Virus record (IMG/VR): IMGVR_UViG_3300028591_000074
Span: 96,001 to 160,000 of that record
Direction: 5' to 3' (one strand)
Length of the DNA stretch: 64,000 nt
DNA from: a virus
Lineage: Duplodnaviria; Caudoviricetes
Shown here: positions 7,203 through 58,422 of the stretch, one piece after another
Numbering within the stretch: the stretch's first letter is position 1
How the letters are laid out: the number at the start of each line of letters is the position of its first letter
Notes under the pieces: model-generated
What the model was told of the DNA's origin: nothing
Databases searched by the model: none
The model's input: only the letters and a program-made list of their open reading frames with translations
Made by a program: the position numbers and the translations under genes

Positions 7203-7589
7203 TCACTCGATAGCCTTTACTACCCACTTAATATATTGATCGGTTTCTTTCTCACACAGTGGACAGATACCAGAAATCTTATCAACTTCCTGATCAGATT
7301 CAATCATAGCAGAAATGAAAATTCCATGACACTTATCACATTCAGCAATCAGATGACCATCAATATTGTTGTCAACCTCAATATCAACATCATCTTCCTG
7401 AACTTCATCCAGAGTGTCCTGCATATCTTCAATGTTATCTGCCATTTCATCTAATGTGTCGTCAAACGCATCATCTTCGACATCTGCATCATCAACAGGC
7501 ATATCAAGATCTTCGAATTCATCTTCTCCGGCAGCCATAATTGGATCACTTGCAGCATCAACGCTACGTGTTCTTTTTTCAATTCTCAT
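7203..7589 (-). CDS. Acidic protein with C-terminal CxxC...CxxC zinc ribbon
   Basis: AECDKCHG and GICPLCE; Asp/Glu-rich N-terminal half. Confidence 0.6.
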   Translation of the reverse strand: MRIEKRTRSVDAASDPIMAAGEDEFEDLDMPVDDADVEDDAFDDTLDEMADNIEDMQDTLDEVQEDDVDIEVDNNIDGHLIAECDKCHGIFISAMIESDQEVDKISGICPLCEKETDQYIKWVVKAIE

Positions 7590-7975
7590 TGTATAAATCT
7601 CCTCCGTGCCTCTATTCTATTTCTAAGTTCATTTGCCACTGTATTTATATCATCATGGTTCCAGAACTTAACTACATCACCATCTACAAAGTAGTCCCAA
7701 TCAAATTCTATGTGTTGCCTTGGATCATATCCGAAACTGATAGTGGAGTAGACAGATACATCAAATATCCCATCTTCACCATCCTCCAATTCCAATCGTA
7801 ACCCAAGTAACTCTGCATCCAAATCTTCATCCATATTAACGATTTGCAACATATAATCTATATCAGATTTAGCGGAATTTTGAACATGTAGTGGTATTGT
7901 AGTCATCATAATTGAAAATCTCCAATCATTTATACTTAATAGTATAAAAGGTTTGGAAAGAAATTGCCGGAGCAT
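7586..7975 (-). CDS. Hypothetical protein (true start probably internal)
   Basis: ORF lies downstream of the promoter-like motif at 7943-7953. Confidence 0.5.
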   Translation of the reverse strand: MLRQFLSKPFILLSINDWRFSIMMTTIPLHVQNSAKSDIDYMLQIVNMDEDLDAELLGLRLELEDGEDGIFDVSVYSTISFGYDPRQHIEFDWDYFVDGDVVKFWNHDDINTVANELRNRIEARRRFIQ

Positions 7976-8814: not shown

Positions 8815-9420
8815 TTAAAAATTTTGATCACTTTGACGTTTTCCTTTTTCGAACAACTTACAATTATTGTAGTCAGAACCACGTAAATCTACTAATTCTT
8901 TCCCAACTAAACGCAAGCAGGTTGTTTTATTACACTTTGCGTATTCACACATAACATGATTTAGTGCAGCTTCATTGGAACTATACGCATTTTGTGATTT
9001 CGATCCAAAATATCCATGATACTTGCACTGTTCACATTTCTTCTTATTAAATTTACTTTTCAATATTAACCACCACCAACGTATTATACACCTATATAAG
9101 GTTAAATGTTACAATTATTTTACAGAACTTTTAATTTTTGTAATCTTTTCATAAAGATTGAGGTTATTTGCTTCCCCTTCAGGATCGATTAACCGTTTTG
9201 CATAAGCAGCAAGAATGTCAATATAGAGTTTCTGAATCTCAATATCACTATATCCGGATTCTGCTAACTTTACCATTTCCATCACAACTACAGTAGCAGC
9301 ATCTACTTTAAGTCTTGCTTCTTCCGCACTGTCTAAATGCATTTCGAAAGATTCTAAGTTTTCACTAATTTCTTTTGTAACCGTGTTAAGTTTGATAACC
9401 ATACTATCACCACCAATCAT
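8815..9420 (-). CDS. Two small hypothetical proteins (8815-9063 Cys-rich; 9115-9420)
   Basis: Packed ORFs with RBS-like upstream sequences. Confidence 0.5.
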
Positions 9421-10702: not shown

Positions 10703-11056
10703 TTACTGAGGTCCATCCTCATCATCAGATTCATCTTCTTCAACAGGTTCATCTTCCTCTGGATCATCAGAATCGTCTGATGATGAATTGGAACCTTTCA
10801 GAAGTTGCTTTGGAATCTGATGTATTCCTGTTGCAGCAAAACCGGATACAACACCGACTGCTGCGGCTGTAATAATATCTTCTGCTGGGAAATCTGGAAT
10901 CTTGATAAGATATGCAACTATACCAAGGATAAGTCCAAGGGTTCCACATACACATGGAATCCACTTATCGTCCAATACAGTAACATTCTTCCAAATGTAT
11001 CCAGCTAAAAATGCTATTACAGTTATACTTGCTACACTAGCAATACCAAAACCCAT
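10703..11056 (-). CDS. Holin (Dp-1-like) with acidic C-terminal tail
   Basis: Three hydrophobic segments; DKWIPCVCG and AAAVGVVSGFAATGIHQ; RBS GGAGG before ATG at 11056. Confidence 0.8.
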   Translation of the reverse strand: MGFGIASVASITVIAFLAGYIWKNVTVLDDKWIPCVCGTLGLILGIVAYLIKIPDFPAEDIITAAAVGVVSGFAATGIHQIPKQLLKGSNSSSDDSDDPEEDEPVEEDESDDEDGPQ

Positions 11057-11106
11057 AACAAACACCTCCGCTACTATATTTTGATAATATAAAAGGTTTT
11101 ACATAC

Positions 11107-11200: not shown

Positions 11201-11360
11201 CCAATAGTATATAAGGTTAATCTTCCTGTTCAGACATTTGTTTCAATGCCTCTACTGCTAAATCTAAGGCTGTATTTATCTTAACAGTTCCATCGAAGTC
11301 CATAGGATTGAATCTATAACATTCTGATTTTATAACTGTTATTGCTTCAGAATATGTCAT

Positions 11361-13601: not shown

Positions 13602-15437
13602 TTATTTTCCTCCGGCTAATAATAAGTCAAACAGTTCTGGGTTTCTACTTAAATCTATTCTACCATCTACGATATACTTTGATATGCCTGACTTAGTAGA
13701 TAGAATCTGCTCCACTTTATCGTCAATTGTGTCTTTTGCTACAAGAGTAAATATATTTACAGATTGCGTTGTTCCTGCCCGGTGGCAGCGATCTTCTGCC
13801 TGTTCCTTATCCGAAGGATTCCAAGGCACGTCATAGAAAATTACATTCCTTGCGACTGTAAAAGTATGTGCTGTACCTGCCGCACCAATGGTCCCAAGAA
13901 GAACTGTATAATTGGGATTTTCGATAAAGGTTTTCTTATGCTTTTCTCTATCCTGCGCAGACATTGTACCTGTAAATACACACGTCTTGTATTTCTTACT
14001 TATAAAAGTATATAAGGTTCGGAGTGGTTCTACCCAATTTGAGAATACAACTGTCTTTTCACCACGTTCGTGTGCCTCTTCAAGAAGTTCCAATAACCGT
14101 ACAAGCCTTGCATTTTTCTTAAGATAATCAGAGTCATTCGGACTAATTTCTGTATCAACCAATTCCGGTGAACCATTTACCTGACGAAGTTTAAGTAACT
14201 TAGTCATTGGATTTACTGCAAGCATAATTTCATCTTTATTATTGATGATATCATTTGCAACCTGTGTATAAAGTTTCCGCTGATACGGAGTATTTTCCAC
14301 ATACTCCGTATAATGAATCTTTGGTGGAAGATCTAACACATCATCTTTTAATCTACGAATCATATTGTGTTGAAGTATATTTTTAAGTCTTGGAATATTC
14401 CTATACCCAAGTACAACATGATCGCCAAAGCCGCCATAGATACAAAAATATTGACACCACTTATAATAACTTTCCACAGTATGTCCTTCACAAAGCCGAA
14501 GTGGTACAAATACATCCATAGGTTGCTTTGTAATTGGTGTACCTGTCATAGGTATCCACATACAGTTCTGCTTTGTATATTTCTTAATGCGAAGCAATTG
14601 CTTTCCCTGCTGAGATTTTGCAGACGCATTTTTATGGATTTCATCCAATGCAATCATATTTATCTCACCGGAATTGATTTTATTGATAATAGCATCTGCG
14701 ATTGCGTACTGCCTACCTTCTGTATATCTCAAGGCTTCTATATTCATTATAATAAAATATGGAAGTTCCTGTTCACAATCTTTACTATATTTTTTCCAAG
14801 TGATTAAATCTTTACATTTATCTTTACCTGTTGTATCAAACTTTACATCACCAGACTTCTTCAGTCGGCTACCAATAAGATATGGCTCGTATTCACCATT
14901 TGTATGTTTCCTGATTTCGTCCATCCAGTTATACTTAGCAGAATTTGTACAACATATAATTAGACAGTGCTTAAATCCATAATGTTCTTTATTATAAATC
15001 GCAAGATTTATAAGTTCTATGGATTTCCCACATCCCATCTCATCGGCCAGAAGAAACCCATTCAAGTTATCTGACTGTTCTCTTGCAATACACCACTTCA
15101 TAAAATCTAACTGATGGGAAAATGGCTTTGAACCTTCCTGAACGTAAAATGGAACATCTGTAAGATCAATATCCGGTATTTCAGTTGTCTTATCAATATC
15201 TGCGTTTTCATTGATATGTTCATCAGAAACAATATTGATAAGTGGTTCATACCTTGTACCTTTCAATTCATTTAAAAGAAAACCAAGATGTTCCTTTGGA
15301 ATTGTCCACATCTTAGCATTTGGCAGCCAGCATTTCCCAGGAACAGACTTAACAATATCAACAATCCCTGCATCATACGGAAATGATACTTCATAAACAT
15401 TATTGTTTTGCTTTATATTTATCATAGAAATCACCAC
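13602..15437 (-). CDS. SNF2-family helicase with N-terminal HARP-like domain
   Basis: LADEMGCGKS, LDEIH, MTGTP, IRRLK...LDLPPK, WNPSDKEQAEDRCHRAG; N-terminal VSFPYD...VKSVPGKCW...WTIP. Confidence 0.92.
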   Translation of the reverse strand: MVISMINIKQNNNVYEVSFPYDAGIVDIVKSVPGKCWLPNAKMWTIPKEHLGFLLNELKGTRYEPLINIVSDEHINENADIDKTTEIPDIDLTDVPFYVQEGSKPFSHQLDFMKWCIAREQSDNLNGFLLADEMGCGKSIELINLAIYNKEHYGFKHCLIICCTNSAKYNWMDEIRKHTNGEYEPYLIGSRLKKSGDVKFDTTGKDKCKDLITWKKYSKDCEQELPYFIIMNIEALRYTEGRQYAIADAIINKINSGEINMIALDEIHKNASAKSQQGKQLLRIKKYTKQNCMWIPMTGTPITKQPMDVFVPLRLCEGHTVESYYKWCQYFCIYGGFGDHVVLGYRNIPRLKNILQHNMIRRLKDDVLDLPPKIHYTEYVENTPYQRKLYTQVANDIINNKDEIMLAVNPMTKLLKLRQVNGSPELVDTEISPNDSDYLKKNARLVRLLELLEEAHERGEKTVVFSNWVEPLRTLYTFISKKYKTCVFTGTMSAQDREKHKKTFIENPNYTVLLGTIGAAGTAHTFTVARNVIFYDVPWNPSDKEQAEDRCHRAGTTQSVNIFTLVAKDTIDDKVEQILSTKSGISKYIVDGRIDLSRNPELFDLLLAGGK

Positions 15438-54028: not shown

Positions 54029-54460
54029 TCAAATCATGTTTTCCAAACGAATCTGTCTCATTTCATCCCAAATTAAGTTAGACAGTATTCTAACTCTTGC
54101 TTTACGAGATTCGTCTAAAACATCCTTGTACTTATATATAAGGTGTTTTTCCTTTTTTGACACTAAAATGGTTTCTCTTGTGGATTCACGTACATCTATA
54201 TCATCTATATATAACAATCTATCGTTTGCGTAAATGAGGTCAAGATTCTTTCTTGTTTCTGCATATTCCAATTTCTGCTGAAGATGTTTCGGTTCTACAC
54301 CAGTAATGACCCAAGATATGGCTTCGGATTCTGAAATACAATTATTGACACGTTTCATTCTTCTACGTGCCACACCGCATATATACAGAATGGCAGCATA
54401 ATTGCTGCCAAGTGCCTGTACATATATATTAAATTTTGAATCATATATCCAATGTTTCAT
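54029..54460 (-). CDS. Hypothetical protein; N-terminus weakly resembles RNA polymerase omega subunit
   Basis: LGSNYAAILYICGVARRR...EAISWVITG versus the omega pattern IGNRFDLVLVAARRARQ...IALREIEEG (by-eye alignment). Confidence 0.35.
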   Translation of the reverse strand: MKHWIYDSKFNIYVQALGSNYAAILYICGVARRRMKRVNNCISESEAISWVITGVEPKHLQQKLEYAETRKNLDLIYANDRLLYIDDIDVRESTRETILVSKKEKHLIYKYKDVLDESRKARVRILSNLIWDEMRQIRLENMI

Positions 54461-54530
54461 AAATGAACATTATTCAACTTTCTTGCGTATAAGATTATTT
54501 CATATTTGTGGTTATACTTCCCACGGCCTT

Positions 54531-54886
54531 GTTTGACACCTATGTAAGTTAGCATTTCATCAAAACTTCTACCATGTATCAAGCATTTTGACACCTATGT
54601 AAATTAACATGACACCAAAACGATATCGTGATTTCACCGCGTATCTGGCTTGTTTGATACCTATGTAATTTAACATGACATCAAAACAGTAGCAGTTACA
54701 TTCATGATACTTCCTCCAGTTTGATACCTATGTAATTTAACACTGTATCGAAACTAATAGCACGCTTTTGTTTCGATTCGCTTTGTTTGACACCTGTGTA
54801 ATTTAACATTGTATCGAAACTAATATCGGATTTGGAAGTCAGTTGGCAAGGTTTGATACCTATGTAATTTAACATGACATCAAACC
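54531..54886 (-). CRISPR. Array A: 6 degenerate 36-bp repeats, 5 spacers (19,30,31,30,30 nt)
   Basis: Repeats start at 54531, 54586, 54652, 54719, 54785, 54851; plus-strand consensus GTTTGAYACCTATGTAATTTAACATGACATCAAAAC. Confidence 0.92.
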
Positions 54887-55000
54887 CCAAATCACACACG
54901 TATTCAGTTTTGATAGCATATTTACAAAGGTTTAGTGAGTGCTTTGTGGAAATCATTATAGATTTCCTACCTCACTATAAGGTTGTCAAATCAACCCTTA
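54887..55000 (-). ncRNA. tracr/omegaRNA-like scaffold A
   Basis: Anti-repeat at 54907-54930; stems tagtgag/ctcacta, ggaaatc/gatttcc, ggttg/caacc. Confidence 0.75.
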
Positions 55001-55043
55001 TATATAAATATTTCAATTACATGTAACAACCGATCCTTCTGAT

Positions 55044-55585
55044 GTTTGACACCTATTGAATCCCATAGCTCAACAAAACTGTATTAACTGTCATGTTTTC
55101 TTCGCTTAGATTTGACACCTGTGTAATTCCGCAGTTCCTCAAAACTATAATGTATTACCCTTGAGTTTGACTATGTTTGATACCTATATAATTTTGCAGT
55201 CTGTCAAAACCGGTATCTCACCTAAGCCGTTTTCCACAGGTTTGATGCCTATGTAATCTCACAATCTAACAAAACCAAGATGTTCTTGTCGATGCCATCA
55301 AGGAAGTTTGACACCAATGTAATTTCGTAGTCCAACAAAACAGAAACTGATATATGAGAATCCCATGTATTAGTTTGACACCTGTGTAATTCCATAATCC
55401 ATCAAAACTTAGCGAATGTCTGTTCACTTTTGACACCTATGTAATCTCACAATCCAACAAAACAATGAATTGTGTTCTTTCATCTTGATTGTTGTTTGAC
55501 ACCAATGTAATTTCATAGTCTATCAAAATCTTCAGACAAATACCTAATAAGTTTGACACCTATACAATTTACAGTCCGACAAAAC
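55044..55585 (-). CRISPR. Array B: 9 degenerate 35-36-bp repeats, 8 spacers (30,29,29,30,31,19,30,21 nt)
   Basis: Repeats start at 55044, 55110, 55175, 55240, 55306, 55373, 55428, 55494, 55551; consensus GTTTGACACCTATGTAATTYCAYAGTCYAWCAAAAC. Confidence 0.92.
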
Positions 55586-55700
55586 ATCAAATCACACATA
55601 TTCAGTTTTGACAGATCATATTTTACAAAGGCTTAGTGAGTGTGTTACGTGAATCATTTCAGATCACTACCTCACCATAAGGTCGTCAAATCGACCCCGT
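55586..55700 (-). ncRNA. tracr/omegaRNA-like scaffold B
   Basis: Paralog of scaffold A; anti-repeat at 55605-55631; compensatory ggtcg/cgacc stem. Confidence 0.75.
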
Positions 55701-55736
55701 ATATTAAATTTTACGTTACGATTATATTTAGCATAA

Positions 55737-55869
55737 GTTTGATGTATTTGTAATTCCATACACCACCCGGGCCTGTAGTTTGATGTCCTTATAATTCCAT
55801 ACAGTTCAAATCAAAAGTATAATCATCCAACCTTTTATGTTTGACATCTATGCAATCACATATAGGATC
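55737..55869 (-). CRISPR. Array C: 3 strongly degenerate repeats
   Basis: GTTTGA-starting units at 55737, 55778 and 55839; the first two share taattccatac, the third is more diverged. Confidence 0.6.
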
Positions 55870-55961
55870 GTTGATCCGTATGAAATTACAAAGGCTTGGT
55901 GAGTGTGTTACGGATAATTCTGAGACTATCCTACCTCACTTTACGGCTGTCAAATCAACCC
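55870..55961 (-). ncRNA. Scaffold C overlapping the Cas12f-like stop codon and fused to its first repeat
   Basis: Third paralog of the scaffold; ggatc-gtt-gatcc hairpin joins anti-repeat to repeat. Confidence 0.7.
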
Positions 55962-57295
55962 ATTATTGTAATATTCTTTGCCTTGTTATAGGCATGACTG
56001 ATTGTTTTTCCACAATGAGGGCAAGTAAACGATACTTCCTGTGTCCATTCAAATACCTTCGGAATTACTTCTTCTGTACAGAATACTTCACCGCAAGAAC
56101 TGCATACATTCCGGACTGTCCGAAGAACATCTGTCTTTTTATCCTGCTTATCAGTCATCTTACTTGTTGTTACAACAATACCTTCACGTTCTGCCTTATA
56201 AGTAATGAACTGTACCAACTGGTAATAGGACCAATTCCGAAGAAGTACGGGGTAATCATCAAGATCTGACTTCGTTACATCTTCTACCACAATAGCGGAT
56301 ACCTTGTTATCTTTTGCAAACTCAACAACCATCTTACTAAGATTATGATTGTATGTCTGCACATAATTTTTCTCATAGGACTTATGTGTTTCAAGTTTTG
56401 CTAACTTCTTCCCACGACCATGCCCACCATTGGAATACTTCAAAGCTCTCTGAAGATTCTCAAAGTGGATCTGAATATCTTTTCGTTTTGCTACAAGATC
56501 ATTCTTTATTGATCCGCCAATCTCATGTTCATCATCATCTGTAGAAAGTGCGGCAACAAGACATTTATCATATCCAAGTGCAAGCCCCATAATCTTTCCA
56601 TGCTCTGGGATATATTCTTCTGCATCACGCTCAATCTTGACAGACAGATTAAATATAATCTTACCCTTGTTCGTAATCTGAATCGTGCTACCGCAGACTT
56701 TATAATGTTCCGGATCAGTTACAATAGATTCCAAAAGTGACGGAAGGAACTTGTCCGGACCCTTATTCTTACCTGCACCAAGATACAGTTTGAAATGGAT
56801 TCCGTTTACAAACTTAAAGAAGTAGGCATTTACGGTATTTTCCGTTCCATCATCCGTAGTGTAGGTATCATCCCCGGTATAAATAGTAATGAACCTGCTT
56901 GGAACCATAAGTGGGAAATCTCTTTTATAAAATGGTAGATTCCGTTCACCCTTTGCAAGACCATTCTTCAAAGCTGTGGAAAAGTCCTGTTTTACTTTCA
57001 TACCACAGTTCCCGGCCATACCCAAACCCTTCGCCTGTTTCATATCATGTATGGCAGTATTTGTATTACGGAATATCATCTTCATTTCTTCCTTGAAGTT
57101 AGGATCATTGAAGTTCTTATCATACTTATAGTATAAGCACCCAACCTGTGACATGTAAGTATTCAAGATACAATACTGATTATAAATCCCGTCACGAAGG
57201 TACTGATATACTCTATCTCGTTCTTCTTTATCACCTACCGGGAATAACTGAATCTTCTTTGTTGTGATTGTAGTTGTTTTCTTCTGCATACCCAC
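55955..57295 (-). CDS. cas12f: Cas12f-like (type V-F / TnpB-derived) protein, predicted nuclease-dead
   Basis: KNGLAKGERNLPFYKRDFPLM, GGHGRGKKL, TYNHNLSK, RNWSYYQL..FITYKAEREGI, CSSCG...CPHCG. RuvC-I is GLALG (normally GVDLG), RuvC-II VEDV is retained, RuvC-III is SHAYNKAKNI (normally NADxNAAxNI). Confidence 0.88.
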   Translation of the reverse strand: MGMQKKTTTITTKKIQLFPVGDKEERDRVYQYLRDGIYNQYCILNTYMSQVGCLYYKYDKNFNDPNFKEEMKMIFRNTNTAIHDMKQAKGLGMAGNCGMKVKQDFSTALKNGLAKGERNLPFYKRDFPLMVPSRFITIYTGDDTYTTDDGTENTVNAYFFKFVNGIHFKLYLGAGKNKGPDKFLPSLLESIVTDPEHYKVCGSTIQITNKGKIIFNLSVKIERDAEEYIPEHGKIMGLALGYDKCLVAALSTDDDEHEIGGSIKNDLVAKRKDIQIHFENLQRALKYSNGGHGRGKKLAKLETHKSYEKNYVQTYNHNLSKMVVEFAKDNKVSAIVVEDVTKSDLDDYPVLLRNWSYYQLVQFITYKAEREGIVVTTSKMTDKQDKKTDVLRTVRNVCSSCGEVFCTEEVIPKVFEWTQEVSFTCPHCGKTISHAYNKAKNITIMG

Positions 57296-57340
57296 ATACT
57301 CCTGTACTTTTGATTTTCGTATGTTTCACGTTCCATGTAT

Positions 57341-57350
57341 TATAACGATT
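57341..57350 (-). promoter_or_regulatory. AATCGTTATA phage promoter-like motif upstream of the Cas12f-like gene
   Basis: Same motif seen at ~11 intergenic sites in the window. Confidence 0.65.
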
Positions 57351-57381
57351 CTAAAATAAAAAATTCTAATCAAAATCACCA

Positions 57382-58233
57382 CTAAAAATTAGTTATCAAC
57401 ACTTCATCCAATCCAATATTTTCTGAACCCTCTGAACGATACCGCCAATGATTACTATAATTACCTAACTGAATCACATTGTACTTACTGCTCCAGTTAA
57501 TTAGCAAATCATTTGACTTTTCACCATGTTTTAATACATTAGACAATGCAAACTTGACATTTTTCTGATTTAAAGTATCAAGTATATTTAATAAATCAAT
57601 ATCATCCTGTTCCAACCAACCACCAAATCCACGTTTACCATCACTGTAAGATCCTAAAGTGATACTATATGGTGGGTCACAATATACAAGTGAATCAGAA
57701 GTTAAATCTGTAAAATCAAATTCCCTGAAATCTAAACTTGTTAATACATACTTCTTTTCCTTCAGAAGTTTTGAAAAGTCCATAAGATTTTTCGCAGCGG
57801 TTGACGTAAAACATTTTTTTCCAAAGGAGGTATTAAATTCCATAGAATTATTGAACCGGAGTACATTGTTAAATGCGTAGAATGATAAGACTAATAGTAG
57901 CATAGGTTCTTTTGTCTTATTATATTCATCGCGTAATTCCATATATCCATCAGCATTTGCTTTACTTAATTTGAATCGATCAATCGTAGAATTGATATCT
58001 TCAAATATTGTAGATGTTGGTGTAGTCATAATATAATTATAGACTTCAATGAGATATGTGATTCTATCATTTGCATAAATGATGTCAGCATCTACATTTA
58101 CTGCAACATTCATACCACCTGTAAATAAATCAACGAACTTATCAATATGTTTTGGAAAAACCGGAATAATCTTTCCAAGTATTTCAAACTTACTACCCAT
58201 ATAGTTTAATGGGGATTTTACAAAATCTAGCAT
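57382..58233 (-). CDS. dam: Dam-like (D12 class) DNA adenine methyltransferase
   Basis: SPLNYMGSK, FVDLFTGG, RFNNSMEFNTSFG, VYCDPPY, FALSN, EVLITNF. Confidence 0.9.
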   Translation of the reverse strand: MLDFVKSPLNYMGSKFEILGKIIPVFPKHIDKFVDLFTGGMNVAVNVDADIIYANDRITYLIEVYNYIMTTPTSTIFEDINSTIDRFKLSKANADGYMELRDEYNKTKEPMLLLVLSFYAFNNVLRFNNSMEFNTSFGKKCFTSTAAKNLMDFSKLLKEKKYVLTSLDFREFDFTDLTSDSLVYCDPPYSITLGSYSDGKRGFGGWLEQDDIDLLNILDTLNQKNVKFALSNVLKHGEKSNDLLINWSSKYNVIQLGNYSNHWRYRSEGSENIGLDEVLITNF

Positions 58234-58422
58234 TATGTCCCCTAAATTATCACTTCTGCATTGTCAACAGAATAGGCCGCCCGGTTATTGTAGAAAGTTC
58301 TTGCAATATAGAATAGTATCGCTCAACATCTGATACTTCTTTCAGATCAATATGGGACATATCTATGACATTATCAGATTCACCATAAGATGGTTTAACC
58401 TGTCCCCCAACTAATTCCACGG

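Follow-up and report, generated by a model that had tools for sequence, protein, structure and literature searches.

A guide-position sequence in the predicted dead Cas12f locus of a rumen jumbo phage matches the core of a late-type promoter motif of the same phage

Described systems closest to the locus

The oppF-associated TldRs use natural guides of 9 to 11 nt at promoters, and about 6 nt of these form the seed (Wiegand et al., bioRxiv 10.1101/2023.11.30.569447, 10.64898/2026.09.22.753285). The phage system analyzed here would resemble them in its dead RuvC, in RNA-guided DNA binding, and in target sites that overlap promoter elements. In contrast, the single fixed guide of an oppF-associated TldR adjoins the operon that it regulates and is conserved together with its target, and the factor is TAM dependent and chromosomal, whereas the phage sequence of interest, guide C1, is one of about 16 guides in three tracr-plus-array modules, is strain specific, and would match seven dispersed promoters.

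In the dCas12f-sigmaE systems, guides are 14 to 16 nt long and have a TAM-proximal seed, all complementarity longer than 10 nt is active, and some of the loci carry vestigial CRISPR arrays (Hoffmann et al., Nature 2026, PMC13472631). Their effector is likewise a nuclease-dead Cas12f homologue, and 9N9C, the solved dCas12f, is detectably related to the phage protein. However, these systems of the Bacteroidota have no tracrRNA and are coupled to an ECF sigma factor gene, whereas the phage scaffolds are tracr-like and a search of the phage genome for an ECF sigma partner yielded no match to Sigma70_r2.

The type V-F proteins RhCas12f (9NZP) and CnCas12f1 (8HR5) share with the phage locus the architecture of a tracrRNA plus repeats and spacers. 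RhCas12f recognizes a CCD PAM. Both proteins are active nucleases, unlike the phage protein, which lacks two RuvC acidic residues and is encoded by a genome without Cas1. For CnCas12f1, a C-rich PAM specificity is announced in the title of the report by Su et al. Finally, the prophage fliC-associated TldR is also a phage-encoded dead TnpB-type factor, and it represses a host gene; it differs from the system studied here in having one 16-nt guide, a known host target, and a temperate phage as its carrier. The silencing of host fliC by a prophage TldR fits a phage family whose guides have no targets in the phage itself.

A Cas12f-like protein with two replaced RuvC residues

The window, that is, the whole stretch of 64,000 nucleotides that was analyzed, comprises bases 96001 to 160000 of the 253,527-bp genome of a rumen jumbo phage (about 35% GC), and its minus strand carries nearly all of the genes within it. 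Coordinates given below are those of the window unless another locus is named. One of these genes (55955-57295, minus strand; 446 amino acids, likely start ATG at 57289) encodes the Cas12f-like protein, hereafter dCas12f, in which the Pfam domain Cas12f1-like_TNB (PF07282) was recognized with 32.1 bits, a score exceeding the cut-off. The protein has a RuvC-fold core, a C-terminal zinc-ribbon TNB domain, and homology to solved Cas12f, as do members of the Cas12f/TnpB superfamily. Its closest solved relatives by sequence are RhCas12f (E = 2.7e-49) and CnCas12f1 (E = 1.1e-40), and the four Cys positions of its CxxC...CxxC pattern are invariant in the homologue alignment.

RuvC residues were compared in an alignment of 26 homologues. 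In the phage protein, the RuvC-I Asp is replaced by Ala (GLALG) and the RuvC-III Asp by Tyr (AYNKAKN), and Glu338 is kept; two of the three acidic residues of the D-E-D triad are lost. Homologues at 37 to 41% identity retain the catalytic motifs GVDLG and NADFNAA, and members of the clade of at least 43% identity carry Ala or Ser at the RuvC-I position and Tyr at the RuvC-III position. Since both Asp residues are replaced and the catalytic motifs are intact at 37 to 41% identity, we reasoned that the phage protein is, as judged from the alignment, a naturally dead Cas12f. For this protein (P0001), 572 homologues were found, and the sampled ones that are at least 43% identical to it are dead. 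Several homologues of this large dead clade, from ruminant-gut metagenomes, lie on contigs of more than 100 kb (up to about 234 kb). Only two homologues have named sources in the searched collection, both Eubacterium sp. MAGs, and its closest relatives encoded in bacterial genomes come from Lachnospiraceae and other Clostridia.

The genes neighboring dCas12f encode a Dam methylase and products that were assigned to no family. A class-1 promoter-like motif (AATCG-TTATAAT type; 57338-57350, minus strand) is located about 45 nt upstream of the dCas12f start. Motifs of this type, 10-mers of which reach up to 24 genomic copies, precede dCas12f among other genes and are more frequent than the AACCTT-type motif described below. 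For Cas1 (PF01867), the marker of an adaptation module, no match was found anywhere in the 253.5-kb genome, and neither the locus (54400-58300) nor the array region (54500-55860) had a match in the INPHARED phage collection. The tRNA T-arm word GGTTCGA-TTCC is present in seven to eight copies in genome G000, which points to a large set of predicted tRNAs.

Guide modules downstream of the dCas12f gene

Three paralogous tracr-like scaffolds lie downstream of the dCas12f gene on the same strand, each followed by repeats and spacers, and an Rfam search matched them to no family. The tracr-like scaffold C (55839-55961, minus strand) starts within the last dCas12f codons, is fused, via a short hairpin, to the 3′ portion of a repeat, and is conserved in the related loci L180, L001, and L002. 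Directly 3′ of this fused repeat sits guide C1, 22 nt in length (55817-55838, minus strand), followed by a degenerate repeat (55778-55816, minus strand), which pairs with the anti-repeat of scaffold C in the minimum free energy (MFE) fold, and by a GC-rich guide of 17 nt, C2 (55761-55777, minus strand). The first-pass annotation had placed the first guide at 55812-55838. Its reading of the guide and of the location after the fused repeat held, on the minus strand, but that range includes 5 nt of the next repeat, and C1 itself runs from 55838 to 55817.

C2 is the sole guide of module C that is conserved in relatives. It is found at 4697-4714 in L180, 7657-7673 in L001, and 7627-7643 in L002, with four variable positions, and has no target in phage genome G000 or G002; it is a candidate for a fixed guide against a host site. 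Some relatives have an extra gene-proximal scaffold of type D or E with conserved short guides of its own (7330-7480 in both L001 and L002, 4335-4545 in L180, and 5832-6040 in L181 and L189). Scaffold C of the window resembles D at its start and C further on, a composition suggesting that it may have arisen by a recombinational deletion between two scaffolds.

A conserved A/T-rich box (AAAATTT-AATATA type) is located a few bases before the G-rich start of each downstream scaffold (55705-55725 and 55010-55035, minus strand, in the window; 7710-7730 in L001; 7555-7570 and 8085-8105 in L074), and these boxes probably represent a separate promoter for each module. In L001 (8717-10006) and at the same place in L002, there is an unrelated TnpB gene with OrfB_IS605 and TNB domains, whose catalytic motifs appear intact when read by eye. 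Together with surrounding non-array DNA (about 1.6 kb), this gene breaks up the guide region of both related phages, separating array B from module A.

The first 10 nucleotides of C1 match a late-type promoter core

The first 10 nt of C1 (55838-55829) are the reverse complement of a late-type promoter core. When the whole genome was searched for this prefix, as the first-pass annotation had recommended, seven exact copies were found in 253,527 bp versus 0.44 expected (Poisson, 4.5e-7). All of them are on the plus strand, the sole minus-strand genomic copy of the prefix being guide C1 itself, and 7/7 fall inside the motif AACCTT[T/A/G][T/A]ATA (as read along the gene strand), which a TATA-like box follows at +15 to +19. 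Both exact identities already reported for the window were confirmed on the plus strand: at 7944-7953, a minus-strand promoter-like core comes after a terminator hairpin and precedes a gene start by 44 nt, and at 11089-11098 such a core lies 37 nt before the start of the holin gene (10703-11065, minus strand). The reported 9/10 matches at 9094, 11209 (11209-11218, plus strand), and 23497 were recovered as well, along with a further one at 14010, the mismatch being at guide position 4 or 10 in these variants. It had also been stated that only the seed matches; indeed, pairing ends at nt 10, no C1 pairing beyond that position was found in the phage's own genome, and the best site there agrees at 16 of 22 positions.

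The AACCTT-type motif has 25 sense and 4 antisense copies in the genome. Sixteen of the sense copies lie 37 to 57 nt upstream of a ribosome-binding site (RBS) and start codon, often directly after a terminator hairpin, and among the exact-core sites, one heads the holin gene and another heads the tail-sheath operon. The motif is thus an oriented, intergenic upstream element at a fixed distance from gene starts, in keeping with its earlier description as promoter-like and possibly late. Since exact sites head the holin gene and the tail-sheath operon, a late promoter class is a fair reading of this motif.

The C1 match covers exactly the conserved motif core and starts at guide position 1, the expected place of a seed. 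An exact match is present in 7/25 sense motif copies; the variable motif positions correspond to guide positions 3 and 4, in the PAM-proximal seed, so that the other 18/25 are mismatched there. A 5′ T had been given as the only base shared by the flanks, and T is found at −1 in 7/7 exact sites, but so is A at −3 (flanks TAAT, TAGT, TATT, or GATT). Position −1 is the invariant +10 of the motif, and the 5′ flank is a continuation of the motif.

The first-pass annotation had cautioned that a 10-mer match of this kind is not rare by chance. This caution is borne out in the window and for the raw count, but not for the whole genome, where the seven copies stand against 0.44 expected. Within the window, the prefix has three copies versus 0.37 expected, a number that was reached by 1/100 shuffles, and the excess is marginal; copies with one mismatch show no excess there (10 found versus 10.5 expected). 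When both strands were summed, 1.6% of random 10-mers reached seven genomic copies, and a raw count of seven is not rare in an AT-rich genome. By strand-specific expectation, only 126 10-mers are clearly over-represented in the genome, and a random guide prefix falls on any of these with a p value of 2.65e-4 per guide, yielding a coincidence estimate of about 0.004 over 16 prefixes and of 0.076 over all 285 guide 10-mers. A chance match between the C1 prefix and the promoter core is unlikely, with the reservation that a reader could have noticed a match at any guide position.

C1 in related loci and in RNA-library contigs

The closest strain, L180 (98% protein identity), does not have C1: the same fused repeat leads directly to the degenerate repeat and then to the conserved 17-nt C2. 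Unrelated sequence occupies the C1 place in L001 and L002, whose gene is 90% identical in DNA, and no guide starting with the C1 prefix was found in L074 (81%) or in three further architectures (13 loci, L181-L193). C1 shares 9 nt with one spacer of L001/L002, which is no more than chance would give (about 0.8 expected, by a rough, uncomputed estimate). C1 is missing from all seven related array architectures, and neither conservation nor co-variation of guide and target was observed. The relative G002 retains the AACCTT-type motif (eight sense copies and one antisense, three of them exact), and 0/21 of its guides have a multi-copy seed in its own genome. The first-pass annotation had named beforehand the conservation of the guide among the points on which its proposal would stand or fall, and on this one the proposal failed, with C1 missing from L180 and six other architectures and the motif kept in G002.

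Two sheep-gut RNA-library contigs from one sample (X3 and X4) span 55773-55942 and 55768-55949 with 0 differences, a stretch consisting of scaffold C, C1, the next repeat, and the start of C2. Such contigs reveal neither the strand nor the RNA ends and may stem from DNA carry-over. RNA-library contig cover is lacking over most of dCas12f, and lack of cover was not counted as evidence. In DNA variants from two goat-gut runs (X2 and X5), the C1 stretch is replaced.

Explanations for the C1 match

We favor, at a probability of roughly 0.45, the reading that C1 is a strain-specific by-product, arising either by chance or as a spacer once taken from the late promoter of a related phage; a dedicated control of the phage's own promoters by C1 is improbable. 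C1 would be a real spacer at the guide position, represented in RNA-library contigs, in a hypervariable gene-proximal module of a phage-encoded locus for a dead Cas12f. Its first 10 nt correspond to the most frequent form of the late-type promoter core, a likeness that would be due either to chance or to descent from the promoter of a relative. At the phage's own promoters, C1 may then mediate, at most, weak, seed-only, and transient binding. This by-product reading has no positive target either, because no full-length foreign protospacer for C1 was found in IMG/VR or, with module C as the query, in 401 Lachnospiraceae genomes. Furthermore, strain specificity alone does not exclude a function, because CRISPR-like arrays turn over.

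A functional reading, which we consider unlikely, is that dCas12f loaded with C1 binds the seven exact-core late-type promoters via the 10-nt seed, so as to repress them or set their timing; the effector would be made earlier, from its class-1 promoter. The match sits at the seed position and addresses seven oriented promoter cores, 2/7 of which head the holin gene and the tail-sheath operon, and the coincidence estimate is about 0.004 if the prefix is taken as a prior hypothesis. Moreover, the effector is predicted to be nuclease dead, the RNA-library contigs cover scaffold C and C1 without a difference, and the promoter class of dCas12f differs from the class of the sites it would bind. By analogy, the 9- to 11-nt guides of oppF-associated TldRs at promoters and the activity of dCas12f-sigmaE at all complementarity lengths above 10 nt would also be consistent with short pairing, but the 10-nt pairing of C1 is shorter than the active length in the latter. 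Against steering further stand the absence of C1 from the seven related array architectures, although G002 keeps the motif; the exact match in only 7/25 motif copies, with mismatches within the seed; the A/T-only flanks of the C1 sites versus the C-rich PAM that the title of Su et al. gives for CnCas12f1; and the finding of no other self-targeting guide in the family. Thus, of the earlier proposal that dCas12f is steered to a whole class of phage promoters, the predicted dead effector, C1 at a guide position in RNA-library contigs, a real motif class, and a precedent for 9- to 11-nt guides have stood, whereas conservation of the guide, pairing past nt 10, exact matches across the class, and a second self-targeting guide were not found.

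It is likewise doubtful that C1 represents a seed-only (10-nt), class-wide switch newly evolved in one strain, in which one small RNA would address seven exact-core late promoters and time lysis and tail genes. Were C1 truly to steer dCas12f to the promoter class, a single guide RNA would for the first time be seen in nature to control a promoter family via a shared motif, and for the first time a lytic jumbo phage would be seen to regulate its own program with a CRISPR-derived factor; the switch would do by RNA guidance what a regulator of phage late genes does. A match of the seed alone to a repeated motif arises easily and calls for data on conservation or binding before regulation is concluded from it.

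A somewhat less probable explanation than promoter steering is that C1 is not a guide but a variable linker in module C, in which case the anti-repeat would pair with the second repeat and present C2 as the working guide. C2 is kept in L180, L001, and L002, and no two strains agree in the stretch from the fused repeat to C2. In the MFE fold, about 18 bp form between the anti-repeat and the second repeat; however, the fused repeat is also conserved, has the canonical repeat 3′ end, and can pair with the anti-repeat as well, and the single-sequence fold of module C is no better than those of shuffles (z = −1.49). Likewise, the RNA-library contigs continue beyond C1 via the next repeat into C2 (55768-55949), but they cannot reveal RNA ends. 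It is very improbable that the plus strand acts here as a late-type promoter firing antisense into the dCas12f gene: although 55829-55838 (plus strand) is an exact 10-nt core, the sole exact one on the plus strand genome-wide, position +10, an invariant A in 16/16 sites, holds a G, the match does not reach past the repeat boundary and so has no TATA-like box (+15 to +19), and a sigma-70-type scan gave one weak plus-strand match, built from the repeat and at the shuffle level.

Targets of the guide family

When the 18 window guides were compared with the phage's own genome, no 5′-anchored match longer than 11 nt was found, and C1 alone had more than four own-genome sites of at least 10 nt. The conserved gene-proximal guides of relatives (D1, E1, and E2, like C2) had no target in G000 or G002, and no cross-targeting was found between the related phages. 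With no self-targets in it, the guide family looks outward, probably at host DNA; its working targets probably lie outside the phage genome, in the host. The searches identified a target for none of the other guides, and this left no basis for deriving a TAM.

The locus is useful even under the by-product reading of C1, which we consider the likelier one: a large clade of dead Cas12f proteins with tracr-like scaffolds and multiple arrays, but with neither Cas1 nor self-targets, points to phages that control host genes in a multiplexed, RNA-guided manner. With its three scaffold-plus-array modules, the dCas12f of this jumbo phage is of greater interest than the C1 match.

Several database matches were inspected and rejected. 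A 16-mer of C1 gave 45 matches in IMG/VR, none of them after a repeat end, the best being 20/22 in an unrelated context, and the matches of module C in the 401 Lachnospiraceae genomes were at the chance level. The conserved spacer B5 matched only the relatives' own arrays in IMG/VR; a 20-mer of B5 gave 23 matches in GTDB genomes of diverse phyla, the best at 26/30, which are attributable to chance or common coding words. Arrays A and B, searched against 401 and then 151 Lachnospiraceae genomes, gave weak matches only.

The first 10 nt of guide B4 (55372-55342, minus strand) match the promoter region of dCas12f itself (57333-57342, minus strand), just past the −10-like box and with an adjoining TTA flank. 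The B4 prefix has three 10-nt matches in the genome, of which this is one. It has another flank and lies on another strand than the C1 sites, so the two seed-only candidates share no PAM.

Among the matches in Lachnospiraceae genomes, the best for a spacer was that of A3, which agrees at 28/32 positions with the start of an rpsB-like gene and its RBS. At E = 9.5e-4 per genome, this match has no significance across the 401 genomes and serves as a lead at most. Spacer A3 (54688-54718, minus strand) itself contains an RBS and ATG, and its match lies at 1501-1532 of L177, from Lachnospiraceae, in a gene that reads like that for ribosomal protein S2. This arrangement hints that the arrays may aim at host gene starts.
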